Of a stretch of 64,000 nucleotides of DNA, positions 37,630-44,398 are shown piece by piece. The stretch is from Escherichia phage Ec_Makalu_001. The DNA is taken from sequence record MN894885.1. The stretch is one strand, 5' to 3'. A program made the position numbers and the translations under genes. Under the pieces are notes generated by a model. It was not told where the DNA came from. It did no database searches and worked only from the letters and a program-made list of their open reading frames with translations. Numbering within the stretch: the first letter of the stretch is position 1; the number at the start of each line of letters is the position of its first letter.

Positions 37630-39873
37630 TTACAGTTTGCAAGATGAACATTCGCTAGCGTCTTCCGTACCATCAGCACCATCACGCACGTTAGCGTAAT
37701 ACAGTGTCTTGAGGCCGTAATATTGAGCAAACAGCATATCATCTAACACATCAGCAATATCGACTTTACCAGTCTTATAAGTGCTTGGATCGTAGGATGT
37801 ATTGGAACTAATCGCCTGATCTACAAACTTCTGCATGATCGCTGCCAGTGTCAGATAAGGTTTGTTACCTTTCTTGATCAGTGTCCAAAGCAGGTCAATA
37901 ACATCAGCATTATTCTCTACGTTCGGAATAACCTGATTAAATTGTCCTTCCTTTGATCCTTTAACCGATACAATCCCGCGAGGCGGTTCTATTCCATTGG
38001 TGCTATTAGATACCTGAGAAGACGACTCACAAGGCATCAGCGCCGATAGTGTACTGTTACGAATGCCATATTTTTTCAGGTCTTCGCGCAGTTCTTCCCA
38101 ATCCATCTCATACACCGGGTCAACCAGTTCATCTACTGTCTTTTTGTACCAGTCAATAGGAAGTTCACCGCGACCATAACGTGTTTCGTGCATCAGTTCG
38201 CAAGCGCCCTTCTCTTTTGCTAGCTGCACACTAGCTTTAATCAGAGCATATTGCAAGCGTTCAAACGTTTTATGCGTAAACTCGTTAGCGTCTTCATATG
38301 TGAAGAAATTATCCGCCAGATATGATGCAAAGTTAGTCACACCAACACCCAGAGAGCGACGTTTCTTAGCTGTCAGTGCTTGTTTTACAGGATAATCCTG
38401 ATAATCTAACAGGTTATCAAGTGCACGCACCATAACCATAGCGATCCGCTCTACTTCTTCCATGTTTTCGATATCGAAATTACCTAAAACATATGCTGCC
38501 AAAGTGCATAGGCTGATCTCTGAATCATCACGACCCATCGGTTTTGTCGGCAGAGCGATTTCACAACACAGGTTAGATTGTTTAATCGGTGCTACATTAC
38601 GAATAAACGCCCCGTGATTGTTCATGTTGTCTGTGAACGCTGGATAGATTCGACCAGTGTTAAAACGTTCAATTGCCACCGCTAAAAACAGGTCTTCGGC
38701 TTTAACACGAGTTTTACGAACACTCGGATCTTTTTCCAGTTTTTCATAAAGCTGGCGGAATCCTTCCTCATCTCGGAAGTACAGATCCCACAACAAGCCA
38801 CCCGCAACATCTGGACTAAACAGAGTAATGTAATCACGTTTAAGGAATCGCTCTACCATCAGGTTATTAATCTGTACGCCGTAATCAAGATGACGAATGC
38901 GGTTATCTTCTACCCCTTTGTTGTTCTTCAACACAATAAGACTTTCAAACTCTAAATGCCACATTGGGTAATAGAGAGTCGCCGCCCCGCCACGAATACC
39001 GCCTTGTGAGCATGACTTAACGGCAGTCTGAAAATGTTTCCAGAATGGGATAACGCCAGTATGACGAACTTCACCATGCCCGATCTTAGATCCTTCCGCT
39101 CGAATCATACCAGCATTGATACCGATACCAGCACGCTTACTAATATACTTGATGATTGCATTTGCTGTTTCGTTGATGCCCTGCAATGAGTCATCACTTT
39201 CAATCACCACACACGAACTAAATTGTCGTGTTGGAGTACGCACACCAGCCATAATCGGAGTAGGCAGAGAAATTTGCTTATTCGCAACAGCATTATAAAA
39301 ATCAATCACATGTTCAAGTCGATTTTCTGTCTCTTCTTGATGTAAGCACATACCGATCAGCATATAAGCAAATTGCGGTGTTTCAATGATTTTCTTAGTG
39401 CTGCGATCCTGAACAAGATATTTCTCTTTTAACTGCATTGCACCAGCATAGGTCATTTTAAAGTCAAGTTTATGGTCGATGAATTTCTCCAGATATTCCA
39501 CTTCTTCACGGGAATACTTTTGCAGAATTTCGCGATCATATTTTCCGGTTGCAATATTACGCTCAATATGGCTGTAAAAATCAATTGGTTGGAATTGACC
39601 GTATACTGATTTACGAAGCGCGAACATTGCAAGGTTACTTGCTACATATTGATAATCAGGTGTTTCTACAGTAATGTTATCTGCGGCGACCTTAATCAAT
39701 ACTTTCTGGATATCGTTAGTAGACATACCTTCTGTCAGAAGTGGTTCAACCATATCAAACAATTCATATGGATCAACGTTATGACCTTCGGCTGCCGCTT
39801 CCAGAATTTTCATTACTTTTTCTCTTTCAAACGGAACAGTCAGACCGGAAGACTTAACAACATTTTTAATCAT
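37630..39873 (-). CDS. nrdA: Ribonucleotide reductase large subunit
   Basis: 747 aa; class Ia RNR active-site region (NLCCEIALP; C-terminal CESSS...CSSCKL redox Cys pairs). Confidence 0.88.
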   Translation of the reverse strand: MIKNVVKSSGLTVPFEREKVMKILEAAAEGHNVDPYELFDMVEPLLTEGMSTNDIQKVLIKVAADNITVETPDYQYVASNLAMFALRKSVYGQFQPIDFYSHIERNIATGKYDREILQKYSREEVEYLEKFIDHKLDFKMTYAGAMQLKEKYLVQDRSTKKIIETPQFAYMLIGMCLHQEETENRLEHVIDFYNAVANKQISLPTPIMAGVRTPTRQFSSCVVIESDDSLQGINETANAIIKYISKRAGIGINAGMIRAEGSKIGHGEVRHTGVIPFWKHFQTAVKSCSQGGIRGGAATLYYPMWHLEFESLIVLKNNKGVEDNRIRHLDYGVQINNLMVERFLKRDYITLFSPDVAGGLLWDLYFRDEEGFRQLYEKLEKDPSVRKTRVKAEDLFLAVAIERFNTGRIYPAFTDNMNNHGAFIRNVAPIKQSNLCCEIALPTKPMGRDDSEISLCTLAAYVLGNFDIENMEEVERIAMVMVRALDNLLDYQDYPVKQALTAKKRRSLGVGVTNFASYLADNFFTYEDANEFTHKTFERLQYALIKASVQLAKEKGACELMHETRYGRGELPIDWYKKTVDELVDPVYEMDWEELREDLKKYGIRNSTLSALMPCESSSQVSNSTNGIEPPRGIVSVKGSKEGQFNQVIPNVENNADVIDLLWTLIKKGNKPYLTLAAIMQKFVDQAISSNTSYDPSTYKTGKVDIADVLDDMLFAQYYGLKTLYYANVRDGADGTEDASECSSCKL

Positions 39874-39884
39874 ATTACCTCACT

Positions 39885-40187
39885 TCATATATCAAGCGTA
39901 TTTTCTGGAGTATCGCCGAAAACTCTATTAACGAGATCCGCCAATACTTCACCGTGGCATTTCTTAGGGTAGCAAGTACAACCTAAGCGCATATGTCTTA
40001 ATACTTCTAAATGCGCCCGTGTTATCTCACCATTTCGAATCTTATTATACAACCACTCTTTGTATAATGCAATAGCTTTCTCTCGTCCGTATTCTTTGGC
40101 GGTGTATGGATTTCCCCACATAGTACCACGCTGAATATTAACATCAAAATCGCTATTGTATTTGTTTACAACGCGGCATATTTTCAT
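39885..40187 (-). CDS. DUF4326-like small protein
   Basis: 100 aa; GNPY...LGCTCYPKKCHG pattern; GC palindrome and AAGGAG RBS upstream. Confidence 0.4.
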   Translation of the reverse strand: MKICRVVNKYNSDFDVNIQRGTMWGNPYTAKEYGREKAIALYKEWLYNKIRNGEITRAHLEVLRHMRLGCTCYPKKCHGEVLADLVNRVFGDTPENTLDI

Positions 40188-40223: not shown

Positions 40224-41456
40224 TTATACTGCCATTTGAGCGGTGATTGCCGGATGGCTTTGATAGTTGTGAATTTTAAAGTCTTTCGGAGTTTTTGTCA
40301 ATACCTCATCTAAAGATTTAAATTCCGGCAACTCAATTGTTGGTTTATCAAACGGAACACGGCTTAACTGTTCCATCACTTGGTCAAAGTGATTTTTGTA
40401 AATGTGAGTATCTCCGCCGGAGAAAATCAGTTCTCCTACTTCGAGATCACACATTTTCGCTATGATGTGAGTTAACAGCGCATAGCTGGCGACGTTAAAG
40501 GGCAAGCCCAAAAAGCTGTCTACGCTTCGCTGAAACCACATACAAGACAGTTTACCCTCATTGACATAGAATTGCACGAACGGATGACATACACCTAATA
40601 CAGCATTATGTGTTCCTTGTACGTTCCATGAGTCAATGATGATACGTCGATCCGTTGGATTGTTTTTAATTTGTTCAATCACGTTTTGTAACTGGTCTTC
40701 CCAAATCTTCGGGCGATAGACATATTCTTCATCGTCTTTAGTGCTCGATGTGTCTATGTCCATACTAGCAAAGATCGTGGTATCTGGCGCTAAAATATCC
40801 CCGCCTAGATAATCACTATCAAGCAGATAACCGAAATAACCATCATCTACCCATTCCTGGAATCCCCACAAGCAATATGCATCATTAACAAAATTAGATT
40901 GAGTCTTCCAGTGGTCTGCTACTAAGAATTGATTATATTCAGAATCAAACTCTTCATAACGCATACCACGCCAGATAGCACATAAACGGTCTTCTGTGTC
41001 GTTGGTTGGCGTAAAGTCTTCTACCCACGGGTGTTTAAATGTATGTGTATATTTGCTCTTAACGCGCTTAATTTTGATTTCACCGTGTGGATGAATCGGT
41101 TTGCGTCGCCACGCCATACCATACATATTGCCGACATTATAACCATTGAATCGCAAGGGATTCTTTTCTTTCATATCAAGACAGTTGCCGCGCCAAATAT
41201 CAAATGCTTCCTCGTCAAACTTTCCGCGTGTAATTTCCTGTAAGCGACGGCGGTCAAGTGATCCCTCCATAAACCATAGCAATTCGCCAATTACAGAGGC
41301 TGTAGCCATCTTTTTAGTGGTCAGTAATGGGAAACCCTTGCTTAAATCAATTCGCATCTCTGTGCCGAATTTAGAGAGCGTACCTACCCCCGTTCGGTCT
41401 TCACGAGGCCAGCCATTATCAAGAACATCACGCAATAGTTTCAAATATTCTTTCAT
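40224..41456 (-). CDS. td: Thymidylate synthase with ~115-aa internal insertion
   Basis: 410 aa; TS motifs DRTGVGT, catalytic LGVCHPFVQFYV, QRSVDSFLGLPFNVASYALL (Asn = dUMP specificity), C-terminal AV; ~115 extra residues between the YGxxWR segment and the DRRIIxxSWN segment relative to E. coli and T4 TS. Confidence 0.8.
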   Translation of the reverse strand: MKEYLKLLRDVLDNGWPREDRTGVGTLSKFGTEMRIDLSKGFPLLTTKKMATASVIGELLWFMEGSLDRRRLQEITRGKFDEEAFDIWRGNCLDMKEKNPLRFNGYNVGNMYGMAWRRKPIHPHGEIKIKRVKSKYTHTFKHPWVEDFTPTNDTEDRLCAIWRGMRYEEFDSEYNQFLVADHWKTQSNFVNDAYCLWGFQEWVDDGYFGYLLDSDYLGGDILAPDTTIFASMDIDTSSTKDDEEYVYRPKIWEDQLQNVIEQIKNNPTDRRIIIDSWNVQGTHNAVLGVCHPFVQFYVNEGKLSCMWFQRSVDSFLGLPFNVASYALLTHIIAKMCDLEVGELIFSGGDTHIYKNHFDQVMEQLSRVPFDKPTIELPEFKSLDEVLTKTPKDFKIHNYQSHPAITAQMAV

Positions 41457-41724
41457 CCCACATCACCTTTTTCTTATTGATTGCTTTCTTACGCAGTTTT
41501 GCTACTGTCTCGTCAATATCGATAAAGACAACGCCACGGTCGAATATAGTAGCAGGTCTTGAGATATCGCTATTTTCTTGCACAGGAAGCCATGATGCGC
41601 TCGCTTCATCATAGAGATATTGTAAACCGTAATAATCTACGGCTACTGCGTAGTTTTCACTGGTAGCCGTCCATAATTGAATAATACCGACTTTCATTAT
41701 TGTTCCCGTCCGCAATGTAAACAC
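41428..41724 (-). CDS. Hypothetical protein (about 89-98 aa; start uncertain)
   Basis: ORF coupled to the td start. Confidence 0.35.
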   Translation of the reverse strand: MFTLRTGTIMKVGIIQLWTATSENYAVAVDYYGLQYLYDEASASWLPVQENSDISRPATIFDRGVVFIDIDETVAKLRKKAINKKKVMWDERIFETIA

Positions 41725-41790: not shown

Positions 41791-42360
41791 TTACGCCTTC
41801 TTACGTTCTAAAATTTGTTCGCTGATCAGGTAATTATCAAGGAAGTAATTATGTTCTTCTTTGGTTACAAAGTCAAAATACAATTCCTGAATCATTTCCT
41901 TAGAGATACCAACATCATATTCAAATGGATCGTTGATCCCTGAACGCTGAACATACGTTAACACAATACGGTCCGCAAAGTCAACCGCTTTTTCAATCAG
42001 GGAAGGTCCTCCGATAACACTTACCAAACCTTGCGTTTTCTCCAGGACTTTTAACAGATCCTTTAATTCAATTCCAGTATACACATTAGGCTGGTCGCCG
42101 TTTTTGGCTTTCGGTGTCGGCTTGCTGGCATCGGTACTAATAACCACATTAAGACGACCTTCCAGTGCTTTAGGGAGACTTTCAAAGGTATTACGTCCCA
42201 TTACAACCGCCGCAAGATCAACATCTCCCATAGTGCGCATTTTAAAGTTTTCCATGTCCTTTTTGATTGGACGACCCCACGGTAAACCGCCTTTAAAACC
42301 AAAAGCCCAATTTTCATCTGACATTTTAGTGTCACCAATCGCAAATACACATTGAATCAT
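41791..42360 (-). CDS. frd: Dihydrofolate reductase
   Basis: 189 aa; GLPW motif region (GFKGGLPWGRP), VIGGPSL; synteny after td. Confidence 0.8.
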   Translation of the reverse strand: MIQCVFAIGDTKMSDENWAFGFKGGLPWGRPIKKDMENFKMRTMGDVDLAAVVMGRNTFESLPKALEGRLNVVISTDASKPTPKAKNGDQPNVYTGIELKDLLKVLEKTQGLVSVIGGPSLIEKAVDFADRIVLTYVQRSGINDPFEYDVGISKEMIQELYFDFVTKEEHNYFLDNYLISEQILERKKA

Positions 42361-43135: not shown

Positions 43136-44314
43136 TTACGCTGTCAACTCTTTTTCAAAAGATTTTACGATATACATGATAGTGCTCAATTCAGACGGCG
43201 CTACTGTTTCGGTGTAGCCATCCGGCATATCTTCTTTCGAGATATAGGAAGTCTTGCCTTTCATCGCTTCCTTGATCTTGTTCTCTAATTCTAAGATCTT
43301 TTGACCGTCTTGTAAAGTCAATTCATAAAAGATCTCGTGACCGAACTTTGAAACACGAGATTGGTTTCTCATGCGCTCATGTGTTTCTTTGTTTGTTATT
43401 CCAAATTTCACGCCAACAAAGGAATCATTGTTGGTTAATTTCTGTATATAAAGAGTTCCTGTCTTTAATGCCTGATAACCATGCTTAGAACACAACGGGC
43501 AGCGTGTTCCGCGATTAACAAAATTATCAATAGTTACATCCCATTCATGGTTACGTTCGCATGTCAGAAGTATTCTTGTTAATGCACCTTTCCACTTTCC
43601 TGAAATCCCAATAAATTTTAGTCTGTTGGTTTCGCATATTTTTTCAATTTGTTTTAATCGGTCACTTTTTGTTATTGGTGCTGTTCCGCTACATTTGCGA
43701 CACCGACGACCTAGTTTGAACTTATCATAACTTTGTTCGTAAATGTGATTATTAGGACACTCAAATTTAAGTTTAGTTTTTGTTCCTCTCCATTCCCCAA
43801 TTATACCCAAAAATTTATAATCTCCTTTATTTTCATTTATATAAGATAAGGAATCTTCTTTATCATGCATCTTGCCCCCGTTACATAAAGGACATCTTGT
43901 TTTTTGATGAATGAAATCTGTATATGTTGGTTGGTATGTGTGTCCGTTTGTACAGTTCATAATGAGTCTTGTTCTGCTATTTTTATACTCCCCACCAACA
44001 AAACCAACAAATACATCGTTTGTTTCTTGTTTTATTCTTTCTATCACATTGTTTGGGTTTAATCTTTGAGAATCAACCACACATTTCTTACACGAAACTT
44101 TTTTCCTGATATTTGCTAGAGTTGATGTGTATTCATGCTTGTTATTACATAATATAAGAGCTTTTGTTTTGAGACCAGACCATTCTCCAACAAACCCCAT
44201 GAAAGAATAACCAACTTCCAAACATGAATTTTTTACAACATTTTCCCAATAGAAGGGAGTTTTCGTGTTTCCTTTTATTTCTATACGAATCTCATGTGCT
44301 TGACGTACTAACAT
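43136..44314 (-). CDS. Four-repeat zinc-ribbon protein with C-terminal GIY-YIG-like region
   Basis: Four ~45-aa repeats of pattern F(V/I)G(F/I)xGxWxGxxTxLxxxCxxxHxYxxxxxxFxxxxxC(x2)C; C-terminal LYIQKL...VKFGIT...R...E loosely GIY-YIG-like; start taken at the ATG at 44314 after promoter and RBS. Confidence 0.45.
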   Translation of the reverse strand: MLVRQAHEIRIEIKGNTKTPFYWENVVKNSCLEVGYSFMGFVGEWSGLKTKALILCNNKHEYTSTLANIRKKVSCKKCVVDSQRLNPNNVIERIKQETNDVFVGFVGGEYKNSRTRLIMNCTNGHTYQPTYTDFIHQKTRCPLCNGGKMHDKEDSLSYINENKGDYKFLGIIGEWRGTKTKLKFECPNNHIYEQSYDKFKLGRRCRKCSGTAPITKSDRLKQIEKICETNRLKFIGISGKWKGALTRILLTCERNHEWDVTIDNFVNRGTRCPLCSKHGYQALKTGTLYIQKLTNNDSFVGVKFGITNKETHERMRNQSRVSKFGHEIFYELTLQDGQKILELENKIKEAMKGKTSYISKEDMPDGYTETVAPSELSTIMYIVKSFEKELTA

Positions 44315-44398
44315 ATTTTTATCCTCCGTTGTTTCGATGTGTGTATTATACATTACCACATCAGCACGTCAACACCTTTTTCATAAAATTTTAGGCAA

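Follow-up and report, generated by a model that had tools for sequence, protein, structure and literature searches.

The td locus of Escherichia phage Ec_Makalu_001

The td gene of Escherichia phage Ec_Makalu_001 (sequence record MN894885.1) encodes a thymidylate synthase (TS) of 410 amino acids (aa) that is interrupted by an insert of 136 residues, probably the degenerate remnant of a homing-endonuclease-like module. The gene lies within the 64,000-nucleotide stretch of this genome that was analysed, hereafter called the window, at positions 40224..41456 of the minus strand, stop codon included; all features of td given below are on the same strand. The window was assigned by megablast and tblastn to Krischvirus, the RB49-like T4-type coliphages, and the product of its td gene (Td) is 100% identical to the Td of Ec_Makalu_002 and 99% identical to that of RB49.

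The gene was delimited from the list of open reading frames (ORFs) and identified by its match to Pfam: residues 2-410 align as one stretch to the full profile of Thymidylat_synt (PF00303, 1-266 of 266, E = 1.5e-84), and 124 TS sequences in the PDB match the protein, the best at 1e-68. The N-terminal core of the enzyme, residues 1-117 (41106..41456), ends with the motif YGMAWR and aligns to residues 1-99 of the 264-aa Escherichia coli ThyA, residues 1-82 corresponding to ThyA 1-82. The C-terminal core, residues 254-410 (40227..40697), contains the catalytic pair C290-H291 and aligns to ThyA 110-264, and the alignments to T4 Td (1tis, 286 aa) and L. casei TS (316 aa) restart at residue 254 as well. 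All catalytic motifs are present, as a preliminary description of this DNA made from the sequence alone had stated, the columns that are invariant or near-invariant in TS alignments being R21, E58, Y112, R270/R271, C290-H291, R310, S311, D313, N321, H351 and Y353. That description had also reported an uninterrupted frame of 410 aa. An open td frame (406-411 aa) with the insert was found in 58 of 58 Krischvirus records (phage records with at least 90% identity), at 91-100% amino acid identity. The length of Td is thus not due to a sequencing or frameshift artefact, and the ORF is not split, as had been considered.

The insert comprises residues 118-253 (R118-E253; 40698..41105). Its position is exact by multiple alignment, after YGMAWR (residues 112-117) and before DQLQ (residues 254-257). 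About 115 extra residues had been described behind the YGxxWR segment; alignment to other TS sequences confirmed the insert and its place, and its size was corrected to 136 residues. Subtraction of the 10-residue loop found at this site in E. coli leaves ~126 added residues, and the other ~20 extra residues of Td are accounted for by short N-terminal additions of the kind usual in phage TS. In insert-free relatives the loop at the insert site has 5 to 28 residues. The insert is rich in aromatic and acidic residues, as noted before, with 16.9% F/W/Y, 26 D+E versus 15 K+R, an isoelectric point (pI) of 4.77 and a net charge of -11. At its boundaries (40698 and 41105) neither direct nor inverted repeats, for which a search had been suggested, were found; the only repeats seen were short chance matches that do not fall on these two positions.

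Predicted structure of the insert

The AlphaFold2 (AF2) model of the entire 410-aa Td has a mean predicted local distance difference test score (pLDDT) of 92.8 and a predicted template modelling score (pTM) of 0.91. The insert has a pLDDT of 85-98 over most of its length, and the lowest values are found in the loop formed by residues 171-180 (mean 72). This loop is the site of a four-codon indel, SEYN (residues 172-175; 40932..40943), which is polymorphic among Krischviruses according to an alignment of nine of their Td proteins.

In the model the insert consists of a two-strand stalk and a helical/beta head. The ascending stalk strand, residues 118-130 (RKPIHPHGEIKIK; 41067..41105), is predicted with a mean pLDDT of 85 for residues 111-120 and 90 for residues 121-130, and its pattern, P.ePHG..i.RK, is also present in the long inserts described below. 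The head corresponds to what remains of a unit that we call module B (40764..41000). AF2 and the alignment to the long inserts place in it helices 153-170, 181-193 and 199-204 and strands 210-213 and 228-231, and the tetrapeptide LDSD (residues 212-215; 40812-40823) stands in place of an LDKD that is invariant in the family. The descending stalk strand, residues 245-254 (YVYRPKIWED; 40695..40724), is followed by a helix from DQLQ onwards (residues 255-265), and the long inserts keep a matching motif, hVvRPkIy.DQ. In the AF2 models of the short and long inserts alike, the two ends of the insert pair with each other to form an antiparallel stalk, which gives the modelled insert the appearance of a domain inserted into a loop. 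The independent domain that had been envisaged for the extra residues is therefore what structure prediction returned.

Homology to long thymidylate synthase inserts

After the Krischvirus sequences, the next-best phage matches of Td are from two jumbo phages, UE-S1 (Asteriusvirus) and phiKp_21 (Alcyoneusvirus). The TS annotated in these phages have 517 aa and a 245-aa insert at the identical site, the middle part of which aligns with the Krischvirus insert. Against a hidden Markov model (HMM) built from 15 long TS inserts only, the window insert scored 72.4 bits (E = 2.5e-24), so that the homology between short and long inserts is not in doubt. Same-site inserts of 190-285 aa occur in many phage TS, including those of Rak2-like jumbo phages and T4-like contigs, and the homologue search with the whole Td returned ~25 clusters of long TS (401-613 aa) that carry the insert. 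A word-indexed homologue search with the long insert found two proteins only, and a search for related loci in IMG/VR only two near-identical Krischvirus loci; the divergent loci used below were taken from GenBank matches and from contigs encoding homologous proteins.

The long inserts have a common order of parts, namely the stalk (P.ePHG..i.RK), a module A (..Y.V.GK...V.F..TG..), a module B (LY.iW.dM.iRvYNP...Y..v.VCkrW.NF.NF..D...LWGFQE.VDS.Y..LDKDYYGsn.YSp.TC.F....lNk), a module C (gfKiY.y...f.s...Lq..rGlsrka.lp) and the return stalk (hVvRPkIy.DQ). The AF2 model of the long insert (pLDDT 89.9) shows a small beta-barrel, a helical unit with a strand-strand-helix element, a short beta-beta-alpha tail and paired terminal strands. 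Compared with the PHROGs database, the long insert matched three families annotated as HNH endonuclease at 4e-32, 7e-25 and 9e-21; the best match of the short window insert alone had an E-value of 0.4. No Pfam family matched the short or the long insert at E<=10, NCBIfam gave nothing meaningful with the 15 long inserts, and the long-insert profile had no match at E<=10 among the PDB sequences. A Foldseek comparison of the long-insert model with the PDB gave nothing below E 0.5. Among its structural neighbours in BFVD, a 564-aa viral TS came first, followed by many small phage proteins, several of them named homing endonuclease. The origin of the insert, which the preliminary description had overlooked, is apparent from these sequence comparisons: the insert is homologous, in reduced form, to a homing-endonuclease-like module that many phage TS carry in-frame at this site and that hundreds of phages have as a free-standing protein.

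Size and conserved residues of the module family

The long-insert profile was searched with HMMER against 1.84 billion representative sequences and gave 17,532 matches at E<=1e-3, of which 6,259 were at E<=1e-10. Among the best 150 family representatives, classified with a local TS profile, 73 were TS interrupted near position ~120 of the TS HMM and 77 were non-TS proteins; about half of the 150 are free-standing phage proteins that bear the label HNH or homing endonuclease. All ten long family proteins that were sampled were split TS by Pfam. The non-TS members mostly have 170-300 aa and no Pfam domain and consist of modules A and B alone; they match the same HNH-annotated PHROGs at up to 3e-68. 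A tail resembling the NUMOD of I-HmuI was seen in two members, one non-TS protein and one TS insert. Ten long non-TS representatives had no host-enzyme Pfam domain, TS being the sole in-frame host seen with a query profile that was itself built from TS inserts.

Among isolated phages the module is present in 968 records, nearly always as a stand-alone gene annotated as HNH endonuclease or hypothetical. The hosts of these phages include Vibrio (with phage ICP1), Bacillus, Escherichia and others, and only 5 of the 968 records have the full long insert. No free-standing copy of the module was found within the window, and no characterised member of the family was found in the PDB or in the literature searched. 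Despite at least 17,500 representatives and a conserved D-K-D/N motif, the family is not covered by any Pfam or NCBIfam model and lacks a solved structure.

Near-invariant over the 150 representatives are W110, R116, C117, Y118, W136, F142, D145, D165-K166-D167, Y174, S175, T178, C179 and N187. These residues are equally conserved in the TS-embedded and the free-standing copies; in the former, D165 is found in 73/73, K166 in 72/73, D167 in 71/73, Y174 in 72/72 and N187 in 67/72 sequences. This pattern fits an active site on a beta-beta-alpha unit. The canonical catalytic His of HNH enzymes is missing from the family, a Lys standing in its place (D-K-D) together with the conserved N187, and the module is therefore termed here homing-endonuclease-like. 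On the sequence evidence we assign the family tentatively to the HNH superfamily.

A second insert, of ~30-90 aa, was observed in six TS proteins (P0135, P0138, P0188, P0202, P0237 and P0254) near positions 168-172 of the TS profile, downstream of the region of the catalytic Cys.

Signs of mobility

The insertion point is identical across TS backbones that are 40-60% identical. The core of the insert-bearing TS P0026 (552 aa) is 89% identical to that of the insert-free P0031 (276 aa) and 83% identical to that of the insert-bearing P0027. The loci of P0026 and P0031, L014 and L016 respectively, are syntenic and form a pair of an occupied and an empty allele; both have DHFR-TS and the same upstream ORFs, and their td flanks have 86% and 78% nucleotide identity. 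Their sole structural difference is a clean in-frame block of 828 nucleotides (276 codons) between WR(D/T)W.. and (V/T)DQL. In a comparison of 65 complete insert-bearing TS, identity in the core and identity in module B were only weakly correlated (Spearman coefficient 0.23), and outliers were found both ways, some pairs having inserts 71% and cores 51% identical and others having cores 71% and inserts 34% identical. Because of the shared site, the occupied and empty alleles and the decoupled histories of insert and core, the element looks mobile from its sequences, and such patterns are expected of a homing element.

All contexts examined are phage, that is, T4-like synteny, T4-like contigs or jumbo phages. 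A full insert of 248 aa lies within the T4-like order frd-td-nrdA-nrdB in locus L011, and L013 and L017 are T4-like contigs with short inserts. One insert-bearing TS, a protein from a metagenome-assembled genome of Culicoidibacterales, was considered as coming from a bacterial host and rejected, since its contig is T4-like phage DNA.

Decay and selection in the Krischvirus copy

The Krischvirus insert lacks modules A and C and the Asn-bearing helix, and the loop after the first helix is kept in part. Five of eight invariant polar residues are replaced, with Ser for Lys, Leu for Tyr, Ala for Ser and Thr for Cys, and both Asp and the Thr are kept. The C117-Y118 of the family is Y-E in the Krischvirus insert, and ILAPDTTIF is found at the site of the family pattern iYSpeTCiF. 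The hydrophobic core is retained, including LWGFQEWVD, the two Trp and the Phe residues. In the clade of short inserts, the site of D-K-D varies freely and reads LDSD, LDCD, LTQK, LSCD, LSCK or LSLV. Most long inserts have a pI of 8.3-9.6, versus 4.77 for the window insert. The residue losses, the drift at D-K-D and the shift from basic to acidic are all signs of a dead endonuclease or DNA binder.

Selection was analysed on a set of ten td sequences of the Krischvirus type. For the insert, the nonsynonymous substitution rate divided by the synonymous one (dN/dS) is 0.15-0.21, which differs from neutrality with p from 1e-8 to 4e-10, so the insert is under purifying selection. The C-terminal core has a dN/dS of 0.07-0.16 and the N-terminal core one of 0.05-0.06 among Krischviruses and 0.01 versus the P0004 locus; the insert is thus comparable to the former but 3-4 times more relaxed than the latter. 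A second reduction, independent of the Krischvirus one and leaving ~145 aa that comprise the stalk and module B, is seen in the proteins P0011 and P0015, whose cores are closest to jumbo-phage TS.

A mosaic patch was observed directly 3' of the insert, at 40383-40688 of the minus strand (td codons ~257-358). One version of it is present in the window, RB49 and Phi1 and a divergent version in JSE, GEC-3S, Skers and KFS-EC. In the divergent version synonymous sites show saturation and the nucleotide identity drops to 47-53% in 30-nucleotide bins, whereas it remains at 93-100% in the N-core, the insert and the C-tail. From its sequence the patch resembles a tract of recombination or gene conversion, one breakpoint of which lies ~10 nucleotides or less from the insert boundary.

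Probable origin and fate of the insert

Taken with the homology, the reading that best accounts for these data, and which we regard as probable, is that the Krischvirus insert is a degenerate, immobile remnant of a homing-endonuclease-like module that entered td in-frame in a T4-like ancestor. The element would have entered the surface loop just past the conserved YGxxWR in an ancestor within the T4-like phages. When intact, it would have consisted of a beta stalk, a beta-barrel (A), a helical and beta-beta-alpha unit (B) and an I-HmuI-like tail (C), would have been translated as part of TS without splicing, and would have spread by cutting insert-free td alleles and being copied during repair. 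In the Krischviruses, fixation would have been followed by loss of the endonuclease and by erosion to the smallest folding unit, namely the stalk and the hydrophobic core of module B. The stalk strands would lead the chain back to the TS core, which would act as an ordinary ThyA, with the remnant forming a separate knob on the TS small domain and having gained no new function. Foldability would be under selection because the enzyme has to function and an insert that misfolds, or is removed imprecisely, would harm the working Td, the same logic as for mini-inteins. It is quite conceivable, if somewhat short of probable, that the intact relatives are working homing endonucleases which form a permanent, unspliced domain of TS and cut the insert-free td of co-infecting phages, the Krischvirus insert then being the end stage of such an element.

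Some observations weigh against the remnant interpretation. A gained function would account equally well for the dN/dS of ~0.2 and for the fact that two separate reduced lineages have kept 127-145 aa of the insert. The occupied/empty pair L014/L016 could in principle result from precise loss instead of gain, and that the insert stays in the protein is suggested by sequence together with predicted structure.

The main rival explanation, which we consider unlikely although it is the strongest of the alternatives, is exaptation, in which the remnant would be kept for a new job in Krischviruses, either docking to the nucleotide-synthesis complex or replication machinery or modulation of TS. A role in protein interaction, for example with the deoxynucleoside triphosphate (dNTP) synthetase complex, had been put forward in the preliminary description as well. 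Such a role would agree with the purifying selection on the insert, with its retention throughout the 58 Krischvirus records and also in relatives with a TS core of 62-68% identity, with its confident independent fold predicted on a projecting stalk, and with the conservation of the blocks AYCLWGFQEWVD and GDILAPDT.IF across the short-insert clade. However, the conserved blocks are mostly made of hydrophobic-core residues common to the whole endonuclease-like family, as expected for the maintenance of a fold, and the surface charge is not conserved in the clade, the net charge being -11 in the window and 0 to -4 in P0005-P0008. Moreover, T4 and most T4-like phages lack the insert, and the analysis revealed neither a partner nor a motif nor a co-varying neighbour gene. 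Nothing positive speaks for the proposed interaction.

It appears far less probable that the Krischvirus insert is still active, as a working site-specific endonuclease or DNA-binding domain serving in homing or in the exclusion of competing phages. The homologous module looks mobile elsewhere, and in some Krischviruses the divergent patch, which starts 10 nucleotides or less from the 3' end of the insert, could be a conversion tract. However, modules A and C, the Lys of D-K-D, Y174, S175, C179, N187 and the Asn helix are all lost and the insert is acidic (pI 4.77), and among the 58 Krischvirus records there is no insert-free td into which it could home.

A spliced element, either a mini-intein or an open-frame intron, or a sequencing or assembly error, has a negligible probability. 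The ~136 aa of the insert are within the size range of mini-inteins and td is a known intron host in T4. However, no intron was detected in td with Rfam at E<=1, one chance match to a small nucleolar RNA excepted, in line with the earlier statement that this is not the T4 td intron. The absence of an intein signature, also stated earlier, holds at the junctions: the insert starts with R118-K-P and not with Cys, Ser or Thr, it ends with W252-E253 and not with His-Asn, and the next residue is D254; intein junction residues are lacking in the long relatives, too. Neither the short nor the long insert has a HINT fold in the AF2 models, the prediction being the stalk with its helical/beta head, and the frame is open in 58 independent genomes. 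The intact element and the Krischvirus insert thus appear never to be spliced at the RNA or protein level.

Gradual lengthening of a variable TS surface loop, unrelated to endonucleases, could be thought of given that the loop varies from 5 to 28 residues in insert-free relatives, but it is refuted by the match of the window insert to the long-insert profile (E 2.5e-24) and of the long inserts to free-standing phage proteins (E down to 1e-68).

Comparison with known inserts and mobile elements

We found no published description of the Td insert of RB49 or other Krischviruses in the literature covered, which included reviews of T4-family genomes and mobile elements and a survey of jumbo phages and was incomplete. 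The preliminary description had allowed for a common lineage-specific loop already known from related phage TS; the insert is indeed shared by all Krischviruses, and many phage TS contain homologues of it, but no publication describing it was found.

TS is among the best-studied enzymes, and the td gene of T4-type phages is the classic host of a mobile intron. The group I intron of T4 td, located elsewhere in the gene, in the C-terminal half, is spliced at the RNA level and encodes a GIY-YIG enzyme. The intron with its I-TevI and the present insert have in common that a homing-type invader entered td in T4-like phages, and they differ in that no intron was detected in the window td. The td gene here thus carries another type of passenger, an endonuclease-like domain that appears to be tolerated within the protein.

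In the same part of the TS surface, extra residues are known from L. casei (50 residues in the small domain), from eukaryotes (insert 1) and from T4 Td. The loop after YGxxWR is what we take to be the position of eukaryotic insert 1; the L. casei insert presumably lies before YGxQWR and not after it, which is consistent with the alignment obtained here. To our knowledge, these lineage-specific inserts have 8-50 residues and no endonuclease ancestry.

Inteins and mini-inteins, including those that contain HNH endonucleases, resemble the td insert as in-frame inserts at conserved sites of replication or nucleotide-metabolism genes, with a history of invasion, fixation and decay to a remnant. In contrast, the td insert has no HINT domain, nucleophile or His-Asn and is predicted to stay in the mature enzyme, and what would be preserved in it is foldability and not splicing. 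The free-standing HNH-type endonucleases (I-HmuI, T4 MobE and the families of PHROGs 2081, 953 and 374) include homologues of modules A and B, some of them with an I-HmuI NUMOD-like tail, and these homologues are abundant as small genes in phages of Vibrio, Bacillus and enterobacteria. They differ from the insert in being separate genes with their own expression signals, and the module family has D-K-D in place of the canonical His.

The nearest published precedent that we found for the td insert is the ShiLan domain of actinophage DNA methylase genes, an in-frame read-through insert that has no intein or intron features and contains an HNH endonuclease in another frame (PMC11855218). A lone LAGLIDADG insertion, in-frame and with no detectable splicing domain, was described in actinophage methylase genes in the same work (Arsenault, Gosselin & Gogarten 2025, PMC11855218). 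Both are similar to the td insert in that they interrupt a phage gene of DNA or nucleotide metabolism between conserved residues and are read through in-frame without stops, and also in their disjunct distribution, their lack of detectable intein or intron features and their predicted projection on connecting strands. The host gene and the module family are different. In ShiLan the endonuclease is in the other frame and in-frame translation yields a loop with little structure, whereas in td the in-frame product is predicted with confidence to be a folded endonuclease-like domain. The longest ORF hidden in the other five frames has 44 aa in the window insert and does not exceed 82 aa in any of three long inserts, and this lack of an alternative-frame ORF sets the td inserts apart from ShiLan.

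If the intact relatives are active, they would represent a further lifestyle of homing endonucleases beside introns, inteins and free-standing genes. The Krischvirus insert would then be the counterpart of a mini-intein, and an enzyme of an essential pathway could carry a passenger indefinitely. The intact three-module inserts of jumbo and T4-like phages, the forms without module A and the Krischvirus stump make up a natural series which, together with the occupied and empty alleles, makes it possible to test homing without splicing machinery, the accommodation of the element by the host protein and what is left by decay. For annotation, the 410-aa Td is not an error, and the tolerated TS loop is a candidate position at which domains might be inserted by engineering.

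Neighbouring genes

The td gene lies between nrdA (37630-39873) and frd (41791-42360). An ORF of 98 aa belonging to phrog_16012 (41428-41724, minus strand) overlaps the start of td by 29 nucleotides. It is conserved in other Krischviruses, where it is annotated as hypothetical, for example as RB49ORF236c.

An ORF of 100 aa with a DUF4326 domain is located between td and nrdA (39885-40187, minus strand) and is a presence/absence polymorphism. It is absent from RB49, Phi1, JSE, GEC-3S, Skers and KFS-EC, in which the gap between td and nrdA is ~69 nucleotides, and it is also found between td and nrdA in the distant T4-like contig L013. Five phage records that align over the entire 4-kb region probably carry the DUF4326 ORF too, judging from the extent of their alignments.

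Upstream of the frd-td-nrdA cluster, a 407-aa ORF (43136-44359, minus strand) has four CapR-homology repeats and a treble-clef zinc finger and matches phrog_681, 'endonuclease', at 1e-99. It is a free-standing homing-endonuclease-like gene, and a 340-aa counterpart lies between gp32 and frd in the contig L017.

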